A stretch of 16,327 nt of DNA, from the UHGV virus genome UHGV-1577189; one strand, 5' to 3'. Source of the stretch: a virus. The position numbers and the translations under genes are program-made. Position 1 is the first letter of the stretch, and every line of letters begins with the position of its first letter. Below are positions 105 to 16,327 of this stretch, one piece after another. The notes under the pieces were generated by a model. It made no database searches. It was given only the letters and a program-made list of their open reading frames with translations, and had not been told where the DNA came from.

Positions 105-157
105 GCGTATTTATCGACGTTTATTGATAAGGCTCGCCCCTTCCTCCTGCAAAGCCC

Positions 158-314
158 GGCCGTAGGCCTTATTTCGGCCTTATATAAATTGATTTTGTAT
201 AGTTCGAAACGCGCCGTTTCGAAAAGGATGATCAGGCTGCTCCATGCCTCCGGCAAGTGCCGGAGGAGGTATATTTGAGCGTAGCGACTCGAACCGGCGC
301 GAGCTTTAGCTCGC
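158..314. repeat. Cluster of four perfect GC-rich inverted repeats (hairpins) beyond the origin region
   Basis: GGCC-GTA-GGCC/AGGCC..GGCCT (158-181); TTCGAAACG-CGC-CGTTTCGAA (203-223); CCTCCGGCA-AG-TGCCGGAGG (247-266); GCGAGCT-TT-AGCTCGC (299-314). No ORF covers them. Confidence 0.5.
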
Positions 315-359
315 TGCAAGGGCGAACATATTCACAGGCAAAGCCTGCGTAAGTTAAAT

Positions 360-598
360 AAAGAAAGTTTTAATAAAAGAAAGTAATTTTGCATTTATTT
401 GTTTAGTGCATCTATTATAAAAAACCATTTGCATATACATATCAAAACTGTGGATAACTTTATTATCCGATACCTGTAAAGGCGATATTTTTGCTGTGTT
501 CAGGTTTAGAGAAAATTAATTTAGATTGTTTTTTGAACAGATATTTTATTGCGACGTAGATAATCCTCCGGTAAAACCGGATTCATCATTCAGGTGGG
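360..598. promoter_or_regulatory. Candidate replication origin (oriR-like) downstream of repA
   Basis: Strongly AT-rich stretch immediately 3' of repA with a consensus DnaA box TGTGGATAA (reverse of TTATCCACA) at 449-457; IncFII-type origins lie just downstream of repA. Confidence 0.45.
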
Positions 599-1447
599 TT
601 AATGTTGGAGTGATTTCCAGGTCTTTCTTAGCCTGTTATAACGCTGCTCAACGAGGGAGCGTAAATATGCAAGGTCAGCACCAGGATACATGCCATCAGC
701 AAATTCCTGGCTAACCTCTCTAGTGATTTGATGACGAAGTTCGGCCTCTCCCTTTTCCTGAACAAGACGCGCAGCTCTCTCCGCTGCTTTCTGTTTTGCC
801 TTTATCTCTCTGGCCGTCTTCCTCTGACGCCATACATTCTCCATCTGCTCCTGAATAACAATACGCTTATAATCAGCCTCCGTTATCGCTTTTTTAAGCC
901 GTTCGCTATTCTTCGCATTGAAGTAATTAAGTTTCTGGCTAACCGCACGTCTCCATGCTTGTTCAGTAATACCAACTGTTTCCAGCAGTTGATCACGAAT
1001 CTCGATTTTCGCTGGCCAATACTGTTTATTCACCCGATCCCAGCGACGTTCATAATCAATAAAACCTAACTCTTTCAGTTGCGACAACGCCCTTGTACAG
1101 CGCGTTATAGACTTGTTCCCAGCTTCGGATACGGTAGACAGGCCGCAAAAATCAGCCAACGCCTCAGCACTGGCCAGAACCCGCTTAGAAATGATGTTTA
1201 CATGGTGCAAAATCGCAGCAATCACAGCATTAATCGCCCGACGACGATGCTCGTTTATCCGGCGTTTCCGCTCTGACGGTTGATTAACGTAGAACGCAAC
1301 CTCACACGTAAGATCACGACCATTAATGCGCTGTAAAGCATCAGATAACACCAGCGGCAGCTTGTGCGTATGGTGCTTTGGAGGCTGGAACTCCGGCGAC
1401 AAATTACAAACGTAAGCTGAACGTAGAGACGGCATTGGTCTATCCAT
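599..1447 (-). CDS. repA: Plasmid replication initiator RepA (IncFII RepA1 family)
   Basis: Translation aligns by eye with R100/R1 RepA1, e.g. GLSTVSEAGNKSITRCTRALSQLKELGFIDYERRWD against GLATESAAGKLSITRATRALTFLSELGLITYQTEYD. The ORF extends to 1591, but the ATG at 1447 (MDRPMPSL) gives a RepA1-like length and places the CopA-like element in the leader. Confidence 0.8.
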   Translation of the reverse strand: MDRPMPSLRSAYVCNLSPEFQPPKHHTHKLPLVLSDALQRINGRDLTCEVAFYVNQPSERKRRINEHRRRAINAVIAAILHHVNIISKRVLASAEALADFCGLSTVSEAGNKSITRCTRALSQLKELGFIDYERRWDRVNKQYWPAKIEIRDQLLETVGITEQAWRRAVSQKLNYFNAKNSERLKKAITEADYKRIVIQEQMENVWRQRKTAREIKAKQKAAERAARLVQEKGEAELRHQITREVSQEFADGMYPGADLAYLRSLVEQRYNRLRKTWKSLQH

Positions 1448-1492
1448 ATGTTCGCTCTTGCGTCCACGGAAAACCAACGTATAATGGGAGTA

Positions 1493-1575
1493 GTCGAGGC
1501 GCCCATGGTTAGTTGTTGGTTTTCCTTTCCGTGGATGTCGCAAGAAGCCCGCAGATTTATCTGCGGGCTTTTTGT
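1493..1575 (+). ncRNA. CopA-like antisense RNA candidate (copy-number control), antisense to the repA leader
   Basis: Sigma70-like promoter: -35 TTGCGT (1458-1463), 16-nt spacer, -10 TATAAT (1480-1485). Perfect 10-bp stem AAGCCCGCAG/CTGCGGGCTT (1545-1570) followed by TTTGTTT; position and orientation match IncFII CopA. Confidence 0.45.
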
Positions 1576-1762
1576 TTCCATATCTGGTCACTTTTCAACC
1601 AGACACCCACAATTATAACCACTTTACGTGGTTTTAAGAGAACTCTACCACAACACTTTCGGTCATGCACGAAGTCTCTCACTGATCGAACGATAATCCA
1701 CCAGTAAAAGGATCTAAATTGGATCTCGTTTTGCGAGCATCATACTACTGGCCTAACTCCAG

Positions 1763-2850: not shown

Positions 2851-3505
2851 TTACCCATACCCACGGGTTAGATAGCCAGTTCTCTTGCCCGTAAATACCG
2901 CGCCAGATATCACCAAAGCCAACGCGATAAACAGCTTCCGGCGGTGTAATCTTGTACGTCGCCGGAGATGCGCCTTCCGCTTTAGCATCTGCCTCGCTCA
3001 TGTCATGCAGCCGTTCCACACGCACGTCGGTAATTTCCAGCAAAATACGCGAAGCCCAGCGCGGCATGTGAATTGATGGACGCCACCCGCCATCAAACTT
3101 TTCATTCACAGTGTGAGGTTTCCAGTCGGCATCATCGGGTATCGACCATAAGCCGTAATCACCCGGCTTTTGCTCACAACTGGCCCGATAAATCCTTGCT
3201 GCGTTCTTCTCATCGCCACGACAAAGGTTGTCGTTCCAGTCCACACTGCAACCATCCTCATTGCCTAATATCGCCCACGCCTCACGGACCCATATGCGAT
3301 CACCAACGTTACCGAACGGGCATAAACCATGTTCAGGTGCATCCATAACGTGGGTATAGACACCATTGCGTTTCTTTGTCGGTTTACGGATAACCAGGCA
3401 GTTATCGGCCCTGACATTTTTTACAGGTCGGCGAGTCTGCGTCTTCCTTCCTTCGAGGATGGCCCTAACCATATCGTCATTAAAAACAACACCACGTTCT
3501 TTCAT
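2813..3505 (-). CDS. Phage-associated hypothetical protein, possibly ASCH-like fold
   Basis: 230 aa; ATG with RBS AAGGTGG; N-terminal MVRAILEGRKTQTRR resembles the GxKxxExR-type ASCH signature from memory. Last gene of a four-gene overlapping operon. Confidence 0.55.
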   Translation of the reverse strand: MKERGVVFNDDMVRAILEGRKTQTRRPVKNVRADNCLVIRKPTKKRNGVYTHVMDAPEHGLCPFGNVGDRIWVREAWAILGNEDGCSVDWNDNLCRGDEKNAARIYRASCEQKPGDYGLWSIPDDADWKPHTVNEKFDGGWRPSIHMPRWASRILLEITDVRVERLHDMSEADAKAEGASPATYKITPPEAVYRVGFGDIWRGIYGQENWLSNPWVWVIEFKRIQGATSE

Positions 3506-4410: not shown

Positions 4411-5478
4411 TCAGGCTTTCAATAGCGATTCTTTCAGATATCGGGCATCAGCCAGGGCGTTTGGAGTAATCTTGCGAACCCATGCATTACGGGTTGGACT
4501 CCACTTAAAGGCGCGTGATTTAAGCAGCGAACGAATGTTTGCCTCTGGTTTGCCAGGGAAATAAAACAGGATGCGGTTATCCTCTGGATCTATCTCCATA
4601 GAAAAGCCGTCGTATTCTTCGCGCTGTGCTCCTGTTACAGACTTGACCGATTCAAGCTCCTTAATACGGCTCTGTAGTCGTTTGATTTCGGCCTTATTGT
4701 TGCTCAGTGCGTATGAAGGGAATCCGATGTGCCCACAGAAATCTCCGGCCAGTAACTCTTTGGCTTCGCTTTCTGTAAACCTGAGATCGATTAATGCAGA
4801 AAGCTGCTGTAATTGGTCTTTTTTGTATTTGCGAATGGCCTTATTTGCTGCCTTCATTTTGACGTGTGACTTCATGCAGCCTTGCAGCTTACGAAGCAAC
4901 TTAAATAGCGCATCAGGATCATCAGACGAAATTCCATTACGACCAACACCTGCGGCTTTGCTCTCGTAGTGTGATGCTTTACTTTCGCATTCAACAAACG
5001 CTTTTCTGAATAACGCATCAGCTTTAGACAAACGGCGGCGATGGCCTTTCGCGCTATAATGGTCAACTAAAATCGGCTGGCCTAACGGGATCACATCCAA
5101 CAGGTCATGCGCTCGCTTATGCGCTACCGCACCTTCTTTTCTGGCTTTTTCTGCACGAGCAATATATCGGGCAAGACGCGCGTTCTGGCGTTCCTGATAG
5201 GTGTTTACGTAATCATCTCCGCGCTGCTGCTGTTCAAGCCATGCTTTGCGCAGATCTTCTGTTACGTCCACCAGCTCCGCAGGGATACAACCAGTTTGGG
5301 CTTCATAAGAGTAACCATCCTCATAGATACGCCCATCGTCTTCAACAAAGAAAAAGGTTTCGTGCTCATCGCTTTTGACCATACGACCATTAACATGGCG
5401 TAATAGGTAGCCAGTATCAGTGCTTAACAGGCTGTTAGGGTTGTTGATCCAGTCAGAAATAATTACTTGTTTATTCAT
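4411..5478 (-). CDS. DUF3560-like domain protein (355 aa), function unknown
   Basis: ATG with RBS GGAGAAA; C-terminal half (GQPILVDHYSAKGHRRR, ISSDDPDALFKLLRKL, FKWSPTRNAWVRK) matches my memory of the DUF3560 family. Confidence 0.7.
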   Translation of the reverse strand: MNKQVIISDWINNPNSLLSTDTGYLLRHVNGRMVKSDEHETFFFVEDDGRIYEDGYSYEAQTGCIPAELVDVTEDLRKAWLEQQQRGDDYVNTYQERQNARLARYIARAEKARKEGAVAHKRAHDLLDVIPLGQPILVDHYSAKGHRRRLSKADALFRKAFVECESKASHYESKAAGVGRNGISSDDPDALFKLLRKLQGCMKSHVKMKAANKAIRKYKKDQLQQLSALIDLRFTESEAKELLAGDFCGHIGFPSYALSNNKAEIKRLQSRIKELESVKSVTGAQREEYDGFSMEIDPEDNRILFYFPGKPEANIRSLLKSRAFKWSPTRNAWVRKITPNALADARYLKESLLKA

Positions 5479-5484
5479 CAGATT

Positions 5485-5580
5485 TCTCCGGTTTAACCAG
5501 GGCGGGTATCGCTCGGTTTCGGGTATAACCTTAGGAAATTTTTTCCCACCTGTAAAGCACTTTTTATATAAATCTATAAT
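5485..5580. repeat. 96-bp promoter/leader module, copy 1 (3 mismatches to 14556..14651)
   Basis: Direct comparison of the two segments; lies immediately upstream of the start codon at 5478. Confidence 0.85.
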
Positions 5581-5647
5581 TATATATTTATAGATTTTCG
5601 ATGTTCCCGATGTCTACACACCATCAAAACAGCTCAAAATGACACTT

Positions 5648-8829: not shown

Positions 8830-8871
8830 TACACAGCACGGCGAAAGCCGTGCATTTCTACGCTCAAAAAA

Positions 8872-8886
8872 ACCACATTATGTGGT
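8872..8886. promoter_or_regulatory. Fourth ACCAC-N5-GTGGT operator (ACCAC-ATTAT-GTGGT) between the repressor gene and the next ORF
   Basis: Same palindrome family as 8018-8135; followed by TTGACA (8888-8893) and RBS AGAGG before the ATG at 8922. Confidence 0.5.
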
Positions 8887-8921
8887 TTTGACAACATGTA
8901 AAAGTATAAAAGAGGCTACGC

Positions 8922-10733: not shown

Positions 10734-10792
10734 TCTTACGGTATATAAGCTACTGCAATGGTAAACAGCTATCAAATGCAGGTTGCAGTAAA

Positions 10793-10812
10793 AAAGGCCC
10801 CCGAAGGGGCCT
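10793..10812 (-). terminator. Rho-independent terminator for the small peptide gene
   Basis: Stem AGGCCCC/GGGGCCT with loop CGAA; a T-run follows on the minus strand. Confidence 0.5.
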
Positions 10813-10817
10813 AATCG

Positions 10818-10940
10818 CTACTTGCTGCTAATGTTTATCGTCACATTCAGAGCGTTATCAGTAATCTTCCAACCCTCCCCATGTGGCGTAAACAAAGCTC
10901 CAGTAACAACGATAAAAATACACATGTAGTATTTTTTCAT
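10818..10940 (-). CDS. Small hydrophobic peptide (40 aa: MKKYYMCIFIVVTGALFTPHGEGWKITDNALNVTINISSK), candidate type I toxin-like membrane peptide
   Basis: ATG at 10940 with RBS AAGGG 8 nt upstream (the track start at 11000 is TTG); Lys-rich N-terminus then a hydrophobic segment; terminator immediately downstream. Confidence 0.4.
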   Translation of the reverse strand: MKKYYMCIFIVVTGALFTPHGEGWKITDNALNVTINISSK

Positions 10941-11219
10941 TGTGTGGCCCTTACAGGCCGTTTCACGGCATCCCCACCGACGAAAATGACGCGAGAGCAA
11001 GCACGCTGTTTGTGCCTGCGTGGTACGGCAAGTGGATAATCCTTTCCTGAAAGTCAGTGCCCGGGTGCGAATCGGCGGAAAGGCCCCAAGCCATATTACA
11101 CGTCATACCCTTCATAATGAAGGAATAAAAAACGCTTTTATTACATGAGATTACACGTAAATAAGTTAAAAACCTTCATTTTGCATGAGCTAATGAGCTA
11201 AATTTTTTTATATGAATAG

Positions 11220-11429: not shown

Positions 11430-11528
11430 CCATTGGTGGACACTTTCCGAGCCGTAGCAAAATCTACGGTCGGGATTGGAACCCCGATAATCATCATGGC
11501 GCATACCGCGTTAGCGGTTTTTTTATGC
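11430..11528 (+). ncRNA. Candidate c4-like antisense RNA of an immI-type antirepressor module
   Basis: Three consecutive hairpins (CCGTAG/CTACGG; TCGGG-ATTGGAA-CCCGA; ACCGC-GTTA-GCGGT plus T7) upstream of a small ORF and ant; the loop GATTGGAACC recurs in the leader hairpin loop at 11638-11647. Confidence 0.35.
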
Positions 11529-11689
11529 GTAAAGCACTGCTACACCCAAATTATGGTGGGGCGTGCGGGGGAGTCGTAAGACTCGCCGGATTCCATGGTG
11601 ACCGGTAGTTCCAACCCTGTACGTCTCACCACCCAATGATTGGAACCAGACGGTGGTGAGTATCCTTAACCTTTAAGGGAACTATCACC

Positions 11690-11881
11690 ATGACAAACTT
11701 ACCCCATGACTATTACGTCAACCTCGTAAAGATCCTTCTCAAGAAAGCCTCATACGCCGATAAATTCCGCCTGGCTGAAATCATCGAGCGCGAAGCTATG
11801 CGCATCGCCAGCAACGATAACGCTGTTTCTGACGCAAAAATCTCCCTCGTAACCAAAGTAGTTATGGGAGGTGCAAAATGA
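11690..11881 (+). CDS. Small ORF (63 aa) translationally coupled to ant (icd-like position)
   Basis: RBS TAAGGGA; its stop overlaps the ant ATG (ATGA at 11878-11881); preceded by a 9-bp-stem leader hairpin at 11625-11662. Confidence 0.45.
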   Translation: MTNLPHDYYVNLVKILLKKASYADKFRLAEIIEREAMRIASNDNAVSDAKISLVTKVVMGGAK

Positions 11882-13023
11882 AAACGCTTCCGACCGTTAA
11901 CACCCTACAGCCTATCCTGCATAACCAAATCCCTGTCATTACTACCGAGTTACTAGCACAGCTTTACGGCACTGAGCCGGTGCGTATTCGCCAGAATCAT
12001 CATGAGAACAAAGCACGTTTCGTTGAAGGGAAACACTTTTTCAAAGTTGTTGGTAATGACCTTAAAGAATTGCGGGTAGCTTTAAACTACTCTCAAAATC
12101 CAGTTTCACCTAAAGTCCGCTCCCTCATCCTCTGGACAGAACGCGGGGCTGCACGTCACGCTAAAATGCTCGAAACCGATCAGGCGTGGGATGTATTCGA
12201 ACGGCTGGAAGACTGCTACTTCAACCAGAACGCGCAAACGGCCGCGACCGTAACCGTCTCACCAAACAATGCTCGTGAGGTTGTCGATACGCTCAACGCT
12301 AAACCAATGTATTACATTAAGGTGTGCAACAACGAGCCACTCACAACCTCAGCCGATGTTGCCCAGGCATTCAGCACCACAAACAATTCCATCGTTATGG
12401 CCATCGATGCGTTACGCATTCCTCGCACAGCTGCGGCGCGTCACTTCTTTAAAGAGCAACGACCGCTGGAAGGAAGCGACCGCGAAATAACAATCTATCG
12501 CATGACAAAAGACGGATTTACCTTGCTCATGGAGAGCATCGACGGTCCAAGCGTGAAAGATATCAAGCTGGCCTACATTGAAGCCTTTAACGCTATCAGC
12601 AGCGTGTTAAAAACACAGTACGAGCGTGATCTGGCTAAACGACTATACCAGGAAAAAACGATTATCCGCGCGGCAACAGAGCATAATCGGCTATTAACGG
12701 AACCGAACTACAGGAAGGAACTAATCAAGGAGTTTGACAAGGCAACAGGGAAAACCAAAGCGGCGCTAAGTCTGCCAGCAATGACTCAGGAAAATGTGAT
12801 ATCAGCCTTACTTCTTGATCTGCTCAGAAACGCCAGAGCACTTATCAGCTTTGACGAAAACCTGAATCCTCAGCTCAAGCTACTACCACCGACAGGCAAA
12901 GTAGTCGACCAAGCAGAACACAACAGCATACTCAGCGTACTGGATGCAAACCTGCCAGCCAGGACACTACAGGATCTGATAAAAACATGTGCTGATAAGC
13001 TGGCACAGAAAAGCAGACCATAA
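11878..13023 (+). CDS. ant: Phage antirepressor Ant
   Basis: 381 aa; N-terminal ITTELLAQLYGTEPVRIRQNHHENKARFVEGKHFFKVVGNDLKEL and SLILWTERGAARHAKMLETDQAWDVFERLEDCYF match the antirepressor N-terminal domain; RBS GGGAGG. Confidence 0.8.
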   Translation: MKTLPTVNTLQPILHNQIPVITTELLAQLYGTEPVRIRQNHHENKARFVEGKHFFKVVGNDLKELRVALNYSQNPVSPKVRSLILWTERGAARHAKMLETDQAWDVFERLEDCYFNQNAQTAATVTVSPNNAREVVDTLNAKPMYYIKVCNNEPLTTSADVAQAFSTTNNSIVMAIDALRIPRTAAARHFFKEQRPLEGSDREITIYRMTKDGFTLLMESIDGPSVKDIKLAYIEAFNAISSVLKTQYERDLAKRLYQEKTIIRAATEHNRLLTEPNYRKELIKEFDKATGKTKAALSLPAMTQENVISALLLDLLRNARALISFDENLNPQLKLLPPTGKVVDQAEHNSILSVLDANLPARTLQDLIKTCADKLAQKSRP

Positions 13024-13832: not shown

Positions 13833-14105
13833 TCATTTGATCCCTTGTTCCAATTCTGACGACACTTTAACCTTTTCCCATACAAGGGTTTGCAGCCTTA
13901 ACAGAATCGCATCTTTATCAAGGTGTGAAAGATCCTTAACCATATCGTCAAACGACAGAACGCGAATGGCCATCTCAATGACCCTCGGCGGCTCCCCCTT
14001 CTCATATCGCTTATATGTAGCCAACGATATCCCAAATTCTTCGGCGGCTCGCTCCTGCGTCCAGTTCATCCCACGACGCCATAATTTCAATTCATAACCC
14101 GTCAT
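13833..14105 (-). CDS. XRE-family HTH transcriptional regulator (about 90 aa)
   Basis: ATG at 14105 with strong RBS GAGGAGG; HTH WTQERAAEEFGISLATYKRYEKG; an 11-bp-arm palindrome lies immediately upstream. Confidence 0.7.
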   Translation of the reverse strand: MTGYELKLWRRGMNWTQERAAEEFGISLATYKRYEKGEPPRVIEMAIRVLSFDDMVKDLSHLDKDAILLRLQTLVWEKVKVSSELEQGIK

Positions 14106-14134: not shown

Positions 14135-14159
14135 GCAAAGTGTCAAAATGACACTTTGC
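14135..14159. promoter_or_regulatory. Perfect 11-bp-arm inverted repeat GCAAAGTGTCA-AAA-TGACACTTTGC (operator/terminator candidate)
   Basis: Sits between the stop of the 14169..14549 gene and the RBS of the HTH regulator; a 14-nt half-site copy occurs at 5635-5648. Confidence 0.55.
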
Positions 14160-14168
14160 GCATTGTGT

Positions 14169-14549
14169 TTACTTAACGAGGAATAAAAATGGTTTATTGT
14201 TCGGCGGTGTAATCGGGGCTGGCTCGCTTTTGCTCATGCGATCAGTGTACCAGGCCAGCTCCTTGTCAAAGTAAGCCTGATTAAAATAGGCCATGAATGT
14301 AGTTTCAAATCCATAACGACCGCTAATACGCAGCATCTGATTGCCGTTCTCTGTTTCCAGATATACCTGGGCACGTTCCTGATTCTCCTTCAGCCAGGTT
14401 AAAGCCTCATCGCACGAGGACACACGGTACTCATCATCGTAGCCGTCATCGATGCGGCTTGAAGAAGAACGGCAAATCACGCCAACAGAACCAGCCAGGA
14501 TAGTTTGAATTTTAAGGAAAGCATTTTTGCGGATTTTAATCATGCTCAT
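14169..14549 (-). CDS. Hypothetical protein (126 aa) driven by the duplicated promoter/leader module
   Basis: ATG with RBS GGAGA in the conserved leader; no family recognised. Confidence 0.6.
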   Translation of the reverse strand: MSMIKIRKNAFLKIQTILAGSVGVICRSSSSRIDDGYDDEYRVSSCDEALTWLKENQERAQVYLETENGNQMLRISGRYGFETTFMAYFNQAYFDKELAWYTDRMSKSEPAPITPPNNKPFLFLVK

Positions 14550-14555
14550 CGGGTT

Positions 14556-14651
14556 ATCTCCGGTTTAACCAGGGCGGGTATCGCTCGGTTTCGGTTATAA
14601 CCTTAGGAAATTTTTTCCCACCTGTAAAGCATTTTTTATATAAATATATAA
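14556..14651. repeat. 96-bp promoter/leader module, copy 2 (3 mismatches to 5485..5580)
   Basis: Direct comparison of the two segments; immediately upstream of the start codon at 14549. Confidence 0.85.
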
Positions 14652-14672
14652 TTATATAATTCTATGAGCACA

Positions 14673-14712: not shown

Positions 14713-15012
14713 TCAGATGTTAAACGCTATTCGTTTTCCTGTGGGAAGCTCAACATCCAGGCTTAATTTGCCTCCCATAGCTTCAACGTAACGCTTTAAT
14801 GTCGCCAGCTTTAAATCATTTCCGCGCTGCTCCAGCTTTGTTACTGCTGGCTGGCTTATACCCATCGCCTCAGCAACCTGTTTTTGTGATAACTGGAGTT
14901 CTTCACGCATCATCTGCAAGCCGACCTCAAGAATCATCTCATCTGCCATTTCTTTAATTCGCGCCTGGCTTTCAGGTGAACGGCTGGCAATCACCTCATC
15001 TAATGTTCTCAT
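14713..15012 (-). CDS. higA: HigA-like HTH antitoxin (addiction module antidote)
   Basis: 99 aa; HTH LSQKQVAEAMGISQPAVTKLEQRGN; directly downstream of and overlapping a RelE/HigB-like toxin gene. Confidence 0.7.
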   Translation of the reverse strand: MRTLDEVIASRSPESQARIKEMADEMILEVGLQMMREELQLSQKQVAEAMGISQPAVTKLEQRGNDLKLATLKRYVEAMGGKLSLDVELPTGKRIAFNI

Positions 15013-15365
15013 TACTTGCTCTCCAGTGTGTTCAGATGTGCTGCAAACTCATCCTCAGCTATACGCACCAGTTTTTCATAAAACCGTTTATCGTTACTTT
15101 TGTCTCCTGCACAAAGAACGATGGCCCGGCGAATCGGATCGAACGCATAAAAGGCTCTTATCGGACGGCCAGAAAACTGAACGCGAAGCTCTTTCATATT
15201 TTTGTACCGAGAACCTTTTACGGTATCGGCATATGGCCTGGGTAACTCAGGTCCGTAAACCTGTAGCTTTTTCAAATCAGCCAAAACCTTTTCCTGAAGA
15301 GCGTCTTCTTGCTCATTTAGCCAGTCGTCAAATCGCTGGCTAAAAAGTACCGTCCACATGCTCAA
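15012..15365 (-). CDS. higB: HigB/RelE-family toxin (addiction module killer protein)
   Basis: 117 aa; motifs LRVQFSGRPIRAFYAF and IVLCAGDKSNDKRFYEK match the killer-protein family; toxin-first gene order is typical of HigBA. Confidence 0.7.
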   Translation of the reverse strand: MSMWTVLFSQRFDDWLNEQEDALQEKVLADLKKLQVYGPELPRPYADTVKGSRYKNMKELRVQFSGRPIRAFYAFDPIRRAIVLCAGDKSNDKRFYEKLVRIAEDEFAAHLNTLESK

Positions 15366-15368
15366 TCC

Positions 15369-15414
15369 TATAACCTGTAGTTTATATCACTAACTATATA
15401 ACCTGTGGGTTATA
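15369..15414. promoter_or_regulatory. Operator/promoter of the HigBA-like operon
   Basis: Perfect inverted repeat TATAACC-TGTG-GGTTATA (15397-15414) plus a related half-site TATAACCTGTAG (15369-15380) directly upstream of the toxin start. Confidence 0.4.
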
Positions 15415-15603
15415 ATTTCAAGAAAAACGGGGCTATTTAACATAATGGACGTTATCGGCACCACCGGATCACCGTTCATTGTCGGATCTAAAAAATCCGC
15501 TCAAAAGATCATGTTTTCCTGGGCGTTTTCCACCGTTTTTTATGTTGCTTATTTGTTAATGAAATCTCGTTTTCAGTTTCGCCTCATTTTCGACGCGAAA
15601 GCC

Positions 15604-15894
15604 CTATTTTTGTGACTTTACTCCTGGCATATGGACTTCCCAGCGACGAATCCCCATAGCTGCGCAAAAATCAGCCACATAATTCAATCCCGCCCATTCG
15701 CGGATACCACCACGGGCTTTTTCAATGAAAACGGCAATCCCTTTTTTATTGAGAGCAAAAAGCCGCCAGCTTTTTGTCACTTCGTCCTGGGTAGCCACAA
15801 CACAAGTGAAAGCTCCCATGCGATACAGGTCCAAGAACTCTTTGCGTGTTTTGCGTACAAGTTCCATAACAAACCTCATATTTGCATGTTTCAA
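15604..15894 (-). CDS. Hypothetical protein (96 aa), second gene of an overlapping two-gene cassette
   Basis: ATGA overlap with the upstream HTH gene at 15891-15894; no family recognised. Confidence 0.5.
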   Translation of the reverse strand: MKHANMRFVMELVRKTRKEFLDLYRMGAFTCVVATQDEVTKSWRLFALNKKGIAVFIEKARGGIREWAGLNYVADFCAAMGIRRWEVHMPGVKSQK

Positions 15895-16178
15895 ACATCT
15901 GTTTTGTTATCAATGAAGATTAACCCTAACCCAGCGAAGTAACACAGCAGCGCCCAGGCTGCATACGGAATGCTGGATCTGGATGTGGACTCCTTTAACA
16001 TCTGCCAGTTGCGAACATTGCGACTATCTTTTAAGCCAAGTTTTTTGGCCAACTGCGATCCGCTCATTCCGGTCAGGCCAATGACTGCCCGAACTTCTCC
16101 ACATGTAGGAGATTCCCATTCATCCGCTTTTTTTAAACAAGCCGGATTCAACATTTTTAAAACAGTATCTTTATCCAT
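15891..16178 (-). CDS. HTH protein with C-terminal hydrophobic (possible transmembrane) segment
   Basis: ATG at 16178 with RBS GGAG 6 nt upstream; HTH-like VIGLTGMSGSQLAKKLGL then IPYAAWALLCYFAGLGLIFI. Confidence 0.55.
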   Translation of the reverse strand: MDKDTVLKMLNPACLKKADEWESPTCGEVRAVIGLTGMSGSQLAKKLGLKDSRNVRNWQMLKESTSRSSIPYAAWALLCYFAGLGLIFIDNKTDV

Positions 16179-16208
16179 AACCATCTCCATTTATTATATC
16201 TACGATGG

Positions 16209-16225
16209 TAGGAAATCTTTTCCTA
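16209..16225. promoter_or_regulatory. Inverted repeat TAGGAAA-TCT-TTTCCTA upstream of the HTH gene (operator candidate)
   Basis: Perfect 7-bp arms; a related palindrome GAAAC-GAT-GTTTC lies at 16282-16294 (also 59-71). Confidence 0.4.
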
Positions 16226-16272
16226 TGTGGCAATAGAAATTTACTACATTGCGTATAAGACAAGTTTTCTAT

Positions 16273-16327
16273 GTCTAATAGGAAACGATGTTTCTTACGT
16301 TTTATCGCGTTCTGATGGCTACTGTGT
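16273..16327. repeat. Terminal overlap copy 2 (identical to 50..104)
   Basis: Exact 55-nt match to the start of the biological sequence. Confidence 0.85.

Follow-up and report, generated by a model that had tools for sequence, protein, structure and literature searches.

KorC proteins are small helix-turn-helix (HTH) repressors known from conjugative plasmids of the IncP, IncU and IncL groups, where they take part in global regulation of the kil-kor type. In IncP plasmids KorC is a global repressor of the klcA and kle promoters, and entry into a cell is accompanied by a burst of expression (PMC7314908); klcA, an anti-restriction gene under the control of IncP KorC, is induced about 120-fold in transconjugants (PMC7314908). 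In the IncU plasmid RA3, several modules are under the control of KorC, whose gene shares a bicistronic operon with kfrC (korC-kfrC; PMC9455977, PMC7783346); the circuit adjoins the replication module (PMC9455977), and the korC promoter has been described as constitutive (PMC7783346). In the IncL plasmid pOXA-48, korC, which is required for maintenance, has a site between the -35 and -10 elements of its own operon (PMC12365149). Autorepression is also described for AcrIF24, a homodimeric anti-CRISPR (Acr) protein whose HTH domain represses its own promoter (PMC9001735). Here we examine a locus at positions 15,604 to 16,225 of UHGV-1577189, a viral genome sequence of 16,327 nucleotides (nt), the whole of which is referred to below as the window. 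This region is 99.2-99.8% identical both to non-mobilizable E. coli plasmids of ~48 kb and to the Yersinia phages vB_YpM_39/41/44, and the element is therefore a phage-plasmid. We consider it probable that the locus is an autoregulated two-gene operon of this phage-plasmid, made up of a KorC-family repressor gene and a cargo gene, which we call orf87. A literature search for KorC in phage-plasmids found nothing relevant.

Judged by its sequence, the first gene of the operon is a KorC-family transcriptional repressor gene, homologous to IncP-1 KorC over its whole length. Its product of 95 amino acids (aa) is 51% identical over 80 residues to KorC of the IncP-1β plasmid R772 (BLASTP, E = 4e-23), in an alignment that spans the HTH as well as the C-terminal motif IPYAAWA(L/I)LC..AGLG(L/V)I (IPYAAWAILCDQAGLGVIW in R772). 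In IncP-1 plasmids (RK2/RP4, R751, R772), KorC represses the kilC (klcA) and kilE (kle) operons. Its length falls within the range of about 85-100 aa that is typical of the single-domain HTH proteins of the KorC family. A homologue with 52% identity (P0027) occupies the korC position of IncP-like contigs: it directly follows klcA (Antirestrict) and klcB and lies between trfA and kleE-korA-incC-korB. Relatives were found by tblastn in 3,928 plasmid records, several of them annotated as korC and many only as hypothetical; likewise, database entries for both genes of the present operon read "hypothetical" or just "helix-turn-helix domain-containing". Within PHROGs the protein belongs to phrog_8351, a family of unknown function, and searches against Pfam, NCBIfam and PADLOC gave no match above the cut-offs, the similarity to TIGR02612 ("mobile mystery protein A") being weak (E = 1e-4, far below the cut-off of that model). 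The open reading frame (ORF), which had already been recognized as an HTH gene in a preliminary description of the locus, was confirmed on the minus strand; from its first ATG, an alternative upstream start at 16190, it would run over 15891..16190 and encode 99 aa, but the likely start is the ATG at 16178 (MDKDTV...), which has GGAG 6 nt upstream and is equivalent to the ATG where PGAP places the korC start in records that are 99.7-99.8% identical.

An AlphaFold (AF2) model of the protein, with a predicted local distance difference test (pLDDT) score of 83.6, has a five-helix XRE-type fold that includes helices at residues 26-36, 40-46, 53-59 and 72-81. The best structural match found with Foldseek is AcrIF24 (template modelling score, TM, 0.70), followed by the anti-CRISPR-associated (Aca) protein Aca1, HipB and the controller proteins (C-proteins) of restriction-modification systems. 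The relationship to AcrIF24 is also detectable in sequence, as a profile search with the family matched the HTH domain of AcrIF24 (residues 154-218) with an E-value of 1.6e-7 and Aca3 with an E-value of 0.0024.

Upstream of the korC-like gene, the preliminary description had pointed out the palindrome TAGGAAA-TCT-TTTCCTA, and its 7-3-7 symmetry is indeed perfect. The whole 17-bp spacer of a sigma-70-like promoter is taken up by this palindrome, the last two bases of which are also the first two of the -10 element. We also considered TATAAT at 16193-16198 as the -10 element and rejected it, since its -35 would be AAAAGA and since TTGCCA/TACCAT is the pair that is conserved in relatives. In their ends and length the predicted operator and those of IncP KorC are alike: the sites before klcA in L004 (TAGGGCATTATGCCCTA) and before klcA and kleA in R772 (TAGGACATTTTGCCCTA and TAGGGCATTTTGCCCTA) are 17 bp long, have TAGG-N9-CCTA ends as here, and lie 56-72 nt upstream of the start codons of klcA and kleA. 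These IncP sites were recovered in L004 and L021, and they, like the KorC-type palindrome overlapping the korC promoter here, have been identified in silico only. There are five perfect 7-3-7 palindromes in the window, as opposed to 1.1 in shuffled sequences; the other four are at 205-221, 3218-3234, 8871-8887 (immediately behind the CI-like gene) and 14139-14155 (in the gap from the 126-aa gene to the 90-aa HTH gene), and may be operators or the stems of terminators.

The operator motif, allowing for at most one mismatch, recurs twice more in the window (Table 1), and the full 48.6-kb relative has four copies where 0.24 are expected, a number that was reached in 0 of 100 shuffles. All of these sites are situated between a -35 and a -10 element, 31-71 nt upstream of minus-strand genes. 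The three that are not in the promoter of korC itself are carried by a near-verbatim repeat of ~110 bp, present three times per element, which consists of an AT-rich upstream region, TTTACA, gg, TGGGAAAAAATTTCCTA, AGGT and a conserved leader ending in CCGGAGA-N5-7-ATG. Two of these promoter-leader cassettes are in the window, leading into the 126-aa gene (14169..14549) and into the DUF3560 operon (4411..5478 and onward), and the third is found only in the full-length relatives (L011 41876-41990), before an operon that leads into ParB-like, terminase and head genes. The proposed action of the HTH protein on the palindrome upstream of its gene is well supported: the site lies in the protein's own promoter, is conserved in diverged relatives and is of the KorC operator class, all of which makes it a good candidate operator. 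The leader of the cassette folds into a small bipartite hairpin (folding z-scores -2.0 to -3.0) whose outer stem shows a compensatory change, with AACC/GGUU in E. coli but GGCC/GGCC in Serratia; it is possible that a structured leader is conserved immediately before the Shine-Dalgarno sequence.

A second palindrome further upstream, GAAAC-GAT-GTTTC, had been presented as related to the first and as another potential binding site. It does exist, but it does not hold up as an operator: in the 99%-identical L001, L002 and L011 it reads GAAACATCATTTC, a G>A change that breaks it, and palindromes of the 5-3-5 type are statistically ordinary here, with 43 in the window. Only GAAA/TTTC is common to it and the first palindrome, although it does overlap a lone TTTCCTA half-site at 16276-16282.

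Both the repressor and its putative operator can be followed into diverged relatives. In Enterobacter phage-plasmids, KorC is ~62% identical overall and 69% over the aligned part, and while the flanks have diverged, TTGCAA-tt-TAGGAAAATATTTCCTA-CCAT has been kept, i.e. both operator arms (TAGGAAA/TTTCCTA), the -35 and the -10, in a promoter (TTGCAA-17-TACCAT) with the same geometry as that of korC here. A siphovirus-type phage-plasmid of Serratia (L025, pJSRIV006_2) is far more distant. It has a KorC-like ORF (32% identity, E = 2.6e-9) at about 16340-16627, which is absent from the PLSDB gene table of pJSRIV006_2, and the order is repA, the KorC-like ORF and then a homologue of orf87 (56% identity). 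Four perfect TAGGA-N7-TCCTA sites occur in this element (0.71 expected), one in the korC promoter (TTGCTA-ac-TAGGATAAAAAGTCCTA-TTGT) and three in homologous cassettes of the form AT-rich/TTGCA/operator/leader (L025 16900-17026, 19240-19365 and 26200-26322), 53-69 nt upstream of genes. The core of the Serratia operator is AGTCCTA as compared to TTTCCTA here, and the operator has therefore changed together with the repressor, which is likewise diverged.

The second gene, orf87, had been described as a 96-aa ORF whose start overlaps the korC stop in an ATGA. Neither claim survives: 96 aa are obtained only from the TTG at 15894, which gives TTGA rather than ATGA, whereas the supported start is the ATG at 15867 (MELVRK...), with GAGG 5 nt upstream, so that the product has 87 aa and the two genes are adjacent, 20 nt apart. 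The same start is used by PGAP in relatives, homologues from Citrobacter, Scandinavium, Leclercia, Klebsiella and Salmonella phage SPN3UB begin at the aligned methionine, and the intercistronic spacer in Serratia is similar (...GGAGGTTTGTTTG). The family to which orf87 belongs (phrog_4595 in PHROGs, of unknown function) is small and mainly confined to Enterobacterales, with a single member from Vibrionaceae (Photobacterium); a word search yielded 12 clusters, and an exhaustive profile search of 1.84 billion proteins yielded 27 representatives. Three hits with matches in multiple stretches (P0040, P0046 and P0049) were discarded as spurious, being repetitive or unrelated proteins. Two motifs are conserved, A-R-G-G-(I/V)-R-E-W-x-G-L-(N/D) and G-I-x-x-W-E-V-H, and the protein is modelled with a β-α-β-β-β-α-β topology (pLDDT 89.2). 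It is basic, with an isoelectric point of 9.9 (9.2-9.7 in homologues), and this charge, together with a weak eL38-like fold in the model, suggests that it might bind nucleic acids.

Homologues of orf87 that are 41-51% identical are present in nine chromosomal prophage loci without a KorC-like neighbour, mostly at the junction of baseplate/tail genes and convergent tail-fibre genes. In Salmonella phage SPN3UB the homologue is located between an Eaa-like region and dinI/ninB (the nin region), and in the Photobacterium plasmid it comes after an acidic non-HTH protein. A replicon function, considered because orf87 adjoins repA and the origin, was rejected in view of these homologues in tail and nin regions of integrated prophages. 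We take orf87 to be a co-transcribed cargo gene for a small basic phage protein, and our best guess is that it acts as an establishment, host-modulating or anti-defence factor.

If the locus is such an autoregulated operon, KorC dimers would bind the operators and block RNA polymerase. Upon entry into a cell that has no KorC, all four promoters would fire; as KorC accumulates, its own operon and the cassette-driven operons would be turned down to a low steady state, and orf87 would accordingly be made in an initial burst, after which its production would be capped by KorC. This is the logic of kil-kor regulation, or zygotic induction, in IncP and IncU plasmids, and also that of Aca control of anti-CRISPR operons. 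A further and considerably more speculative step, which we regard as possible but rather doubtful, would be that KorC has been wired into the phage genome in such a way that the copied cassette serves as an entry-triggered switch coordinating plasmid maintenance with phage genes, orf87 being a new establishment or anti-defence effector. What is described here is a known kind of system, a KorC-family repressor circuit, in an unusual host, a phage-plasmid, and the surprise is therefore a modest one. Nevertheless, it would mean that a phage-plasmid makes use of global regulation of the kil-kor type, and the recognition of KorC together with its operator set yields a regulatory map that can be tested in the ~48-kb phage-plasmids of E. 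coli and Yersinia, a widespread family. The homology between KorC and Aca-type HTH proteins also links two literatures that deal with the same "burst on entry, then repress" logic, and orf87, whose expression is tied to the KorC circuit, would be reasonable to include in a screen for establishment or anti-defence factors.

Compared with the IncP-1 systems, the locus shares the small single-domain HTH protein, the 17-bp TAGG...CCTA operator that overlaps the promoter, at a distance of about 55-70 nt from the start codon, and the presence of several operators per replicon (three in the window, four in the 48.6-kb relative and four, co-varied, in Serratia). In contrast, the host is not a conjugative IncP plasmid but a phage-plasmid with a RepA of the IncFII type, korC follows repA and the origin rather than klcA-klcB (the order being repA-ori-korC-orf87-higBA), the core of the operator is A/T-rich (GAAA...TTTC as opposed to GGCA...TGCC in IncP), the presumed targets are phage/plasmid genes of unknown function instead of klcA and kle, and there are no KorA or KorB partners. 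With KorC of IncU RA3 and IncL pOXA-48 the locus has in common a repressor, global or autogenous, whose gene belongs to a bicistronic operon (korC-kfrC and orf24-korC, respectively), with RA3 also the proximity to the replication module (PMC9455977), and with pOXA-48 the position of the site between the -35 and -10 of the repressor's own promoter (PMC7783346, PMC12365149). The partner genes kfrC and orf24 may well be unrelated to orf87, and whereas the korC promoter of RA3 is described as constitutive, here the best operator is in korC's own promoter.

Several alternative explanations can be put forward, one of which concerns the hydrophobic C-terminus of KorC. The strongly hydrophobic segment noted in the preliminary description, IPYAAWALLCYFAGLGLIFI (residues 70-89), is real, and it is conserved in alignments across the family, including IncP KorC. 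It was thought that it might make this a membrane-anchored regulator, with the HTH held at the inner membrane by a transmembrane helix made up of these 20 residues, and its mean Kyte-Doolittle score of 1.77 over 19 residues, above the classical threshold of 1.6, as well as its location at the extreme C-terminus, would be compatible with that. However, where a transmembrane helix would take ~18-20 residues or more, the terminal helix of the model has only 10 (72-81, block pLDDT 91), and what comes after it is rich in Gly and non-helical (82-89, block pLDDT 72). Towards its N-terminus the segment contains IPYAAWALL, which in an alignment with the solved, soluble HTH domain of AcrIF24 corresponds to ISFAAWHYL. 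Moreover, the corresponding segment of R772 KorC contains an Asp and a Gln and scores only 1.18, KorC proteins function as soluble repressors (PMC7314908, PMC9455977), and tail anchoring would be unusual for a protein of 95 aa with 6 residues past the segment. A membrane anchor is thus hardly credible, and according to the model the "hydrophobic tail" consists of the helix that ends a soluble XRE-type domain and of a short extension rich in Gly. It would serve as a buried core helix and, probably, as a dimer contact. One may also ask whether the recurring palindrome is in fact the site of another regulator by which korC is cross-regulated, as genes for several further HTH proteins lie in the vicinity (a CI-like repressor of 218 aa, the 90-aa HTH protein at 13833-14105 and HigA) and as the cassette sites are one arm base off the korC site. 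We find this highly improbable, because the best (perfect) site is in the korC promoter of the E. coli, Enterobacter and Serratia elements alike, the motif class is that of IncP KorC operators, HigA has distinct TATAACC-N4-GGTTATA repeats in the higBA promoter, and the site co-varies with the divergence of KorC in Serratia.

Other explanations concern the relationship between the two genes. The preliminary description suggested something like a toxin-antitoxin pair. As in HigBA and HipBA, the operon is small and bicistronic, one of its genes encodes an HTH protein and its promoter contains a palindrome; the HTH protein, whose gene precedes a small gene, could then be an autoregulating type II antitoxin and orf87 its toxin. 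The faint TIGR02612 similarity and the HipB fold matches mentioned above, the retention of the pair in two phage-plasmid lineages (E. coli and Serratia) and the fact that KorC proteins have historically been said to "override" host-lethal kil genes (PMC12365149) point in the same direction. Nonetheless, a genuine HigB/HigA-like module is encoded just downstream, start and stop of the present pair do not overlap, orf87 has no match to a known toxin fold or to any family in Pfam, NCBIfam or PADLOC, and the same operator is found at three other promoters, which is how a global regulator behaves and not a local antitoxin. Nor are the genes an obligate pair. Enterobacter phage-plasmids and IncP plasmids have korC without orf87, the nine prophage loci, SPN3UB and the Photobacterium plasmid have orf87 homologues without an HTH partner, and only in E. 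coli and Serratia phage-plasmids is the pair kept; the two genes are therefore independent modules that share an operon in these two lineages, and a toxin-antitoxin function is highly improbable. An Aca-like arrangement would be different in that it refines, and is compatible with, the autoregulated KorC operon rather than excluding it. Here orf87 would be an inhibitor of the anti-restriction or anti-CRISPR kind, expressed in a burst upon entry until the KorC/Aca-type repressor shuts it off. The repressor has sequence homology to Aca3 and to the Aca-type HTH domain of AcrIF24, its best structural match, it is predicted to be an autorepressor acting on an inverted repeat in its own promoter, as described for AcrIF24 (PMC9001735), the anti-restriction gene klcA under IncP KorC responds to entry as cited above (PMC7314908), and orf87 is small and confined to phages and prophages, at positions typical of accessory genes (convergent tail genes; the nin region and dinI). 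Yet no similarity of orf87 to known anti-defence proteins was found in the libraries searched, the repressor is a stand-alone protein of 95 aa without an Acr domain, the operon contains no known acr gene, and the repressor gene comes first, which is the reverse of most acr-aca operons. In addition, orf87 is basic while many inhibitors that mimic DNA are acidic, and most of its homologues have no Aca-like neighbour, and thus we regard this refinement as unlikely, although not nearly so unlikely as a toxin-antitoxin pair.

Obviously, some observations also count against an autoregulated KorC operon. No Pfam or NCBIfam model recognizes the KorC-like protein, and korC is not adjacent to klcA/klcB, unlike in IncP and IncU plasmids, although the kilC-operon position is an IncP trait and not one general to KorC loci, RA3 and pOXA-48 differing from it too. 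The operators are assigned by position, symmetry, recurrence and co-variation. As the cassette sites have TGGGAAA where korC has TAGGAAA, a difference at one arm position, binding to them could be weaker, or a different protein could be involved, and the element does encode a CI-like repressor, a 90-aa HTH protein and HigA in addition to KorC. The role of the tail in dimerization is inferred, and family and fold searches have provided no functional assignment for orf87.

Table 1. Features of the korC-orf87 locus and of related sites in the 16,327-nt window (- minus strand;. no strand given).
Feature	Coordinates	Strand	Basis or remark
korC-like gene, 95-aa XRE-type HTH repressor	15891..16178	-	ORF, PGAP start in relatives, homology
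Codons for hydrophobic segment IPYAAWALLCYFAGLGLIFI, residues 70-89	15909..15968	-	sequence
Intercistronic spacer, 20 nt after the 3-nt korC stop, with GAGG ribosome-binding site	15868..15890	-	
orf87, 87-aa basic α/β protein, second gene of operon	15604..15867	-	
Sigma-70-like promoter TTGCCA-17-TACCAT	16205..16233	-	conserved in relatives
Predicted KorC operator, perfect 17-bp palindrome TAGGAAAAGATTTCCTA (gene strand 16225-16209)	16209..16225	.	symmetry, position, IncP likeness
Second palindrome GAAAC-GAT-GTTTC (5-3-5)	16282..16294	.	judged chance feature
Second operator copy TGGGAAAAAATTTCCTA (gene strand)	14604..14620	.	55-71 nt upstream of 126-aa gene 14169..14549(-)
Promoter-leader cassette copy 1: AT-rich region, TTTACA, operator, TAAGGT, 5' leader ending GGAG	14550..14660	-	
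Third operator copy, identical to second	5532..5548	.	54-70 nt upstream of 355-aa DUF3560 gene 4411..5478(-)
Promoter-leader cassette copy 2	5479..5590	-	
IncFII-type repA	599..1591	-	Pfam IncFII_repA, E 5.5e-44
Origin region	105-598		across circular junction, between repA and korC

As for the window as a whole, its first 49 bases are an adapter artefact (Illumina Nextera, …CTCGTGGGCTCGGAGATGTGTATAAGAGACAG), and bases 50-104 are identical to 16273-16327. This terminal repeat of 55 nt shows that the sequence is a circular assembly contig of about 16,223 bp, which places repA and the origin region directly upstream of korC. In relatives, the gene order is tail fibre, hin, repA, an origin region of ~640 bp, korC, orf87 and a HigB/HigA-like module, with ParA and the CI-like repressor further on, and the locus is carried by about 60 to 100 public records. 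In comparison with full-length relatives of 48.6 kb, ~31.7 kb are missing from the window (about 2395-2581 of the window versus 14037-45742 of L011), a part that includes the virion (tail, head, terminase) and lysis genes, a ParB-like gene and a tRNA-Ile. The 16.2-kb contig is either a mini-plasmid deletion derivative that has kept the replication, maintenance and regulatory genes or an assembly shortcut.

Directly downstream of orf87, at 14713-15365 on the minus strand, there is a bona fide pair consisting of a HigB-like gene (Gp49/RelE-ParE family) and an HTH_3 antitoxin gene, with a stop/start overlap. Its promoter (15378-15423, TTGAAA-17-TATAGT) contains two of the TATAACC-N4-GGTTATA repeats, which are probably HigA operators. 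Elsewhere in the window, three Rfam families scored above the gathering score: ryfA at 10790-11088 (-), isrK at 11451-11524 (+) and C4 antisense RNA at 11549-11636 (+). The latter two lie just upstream of an ORF6N/Rha antirepressor gene (11878-13023), an arrangement that resembles the immI-type antisense control of the antirepressor in P1.

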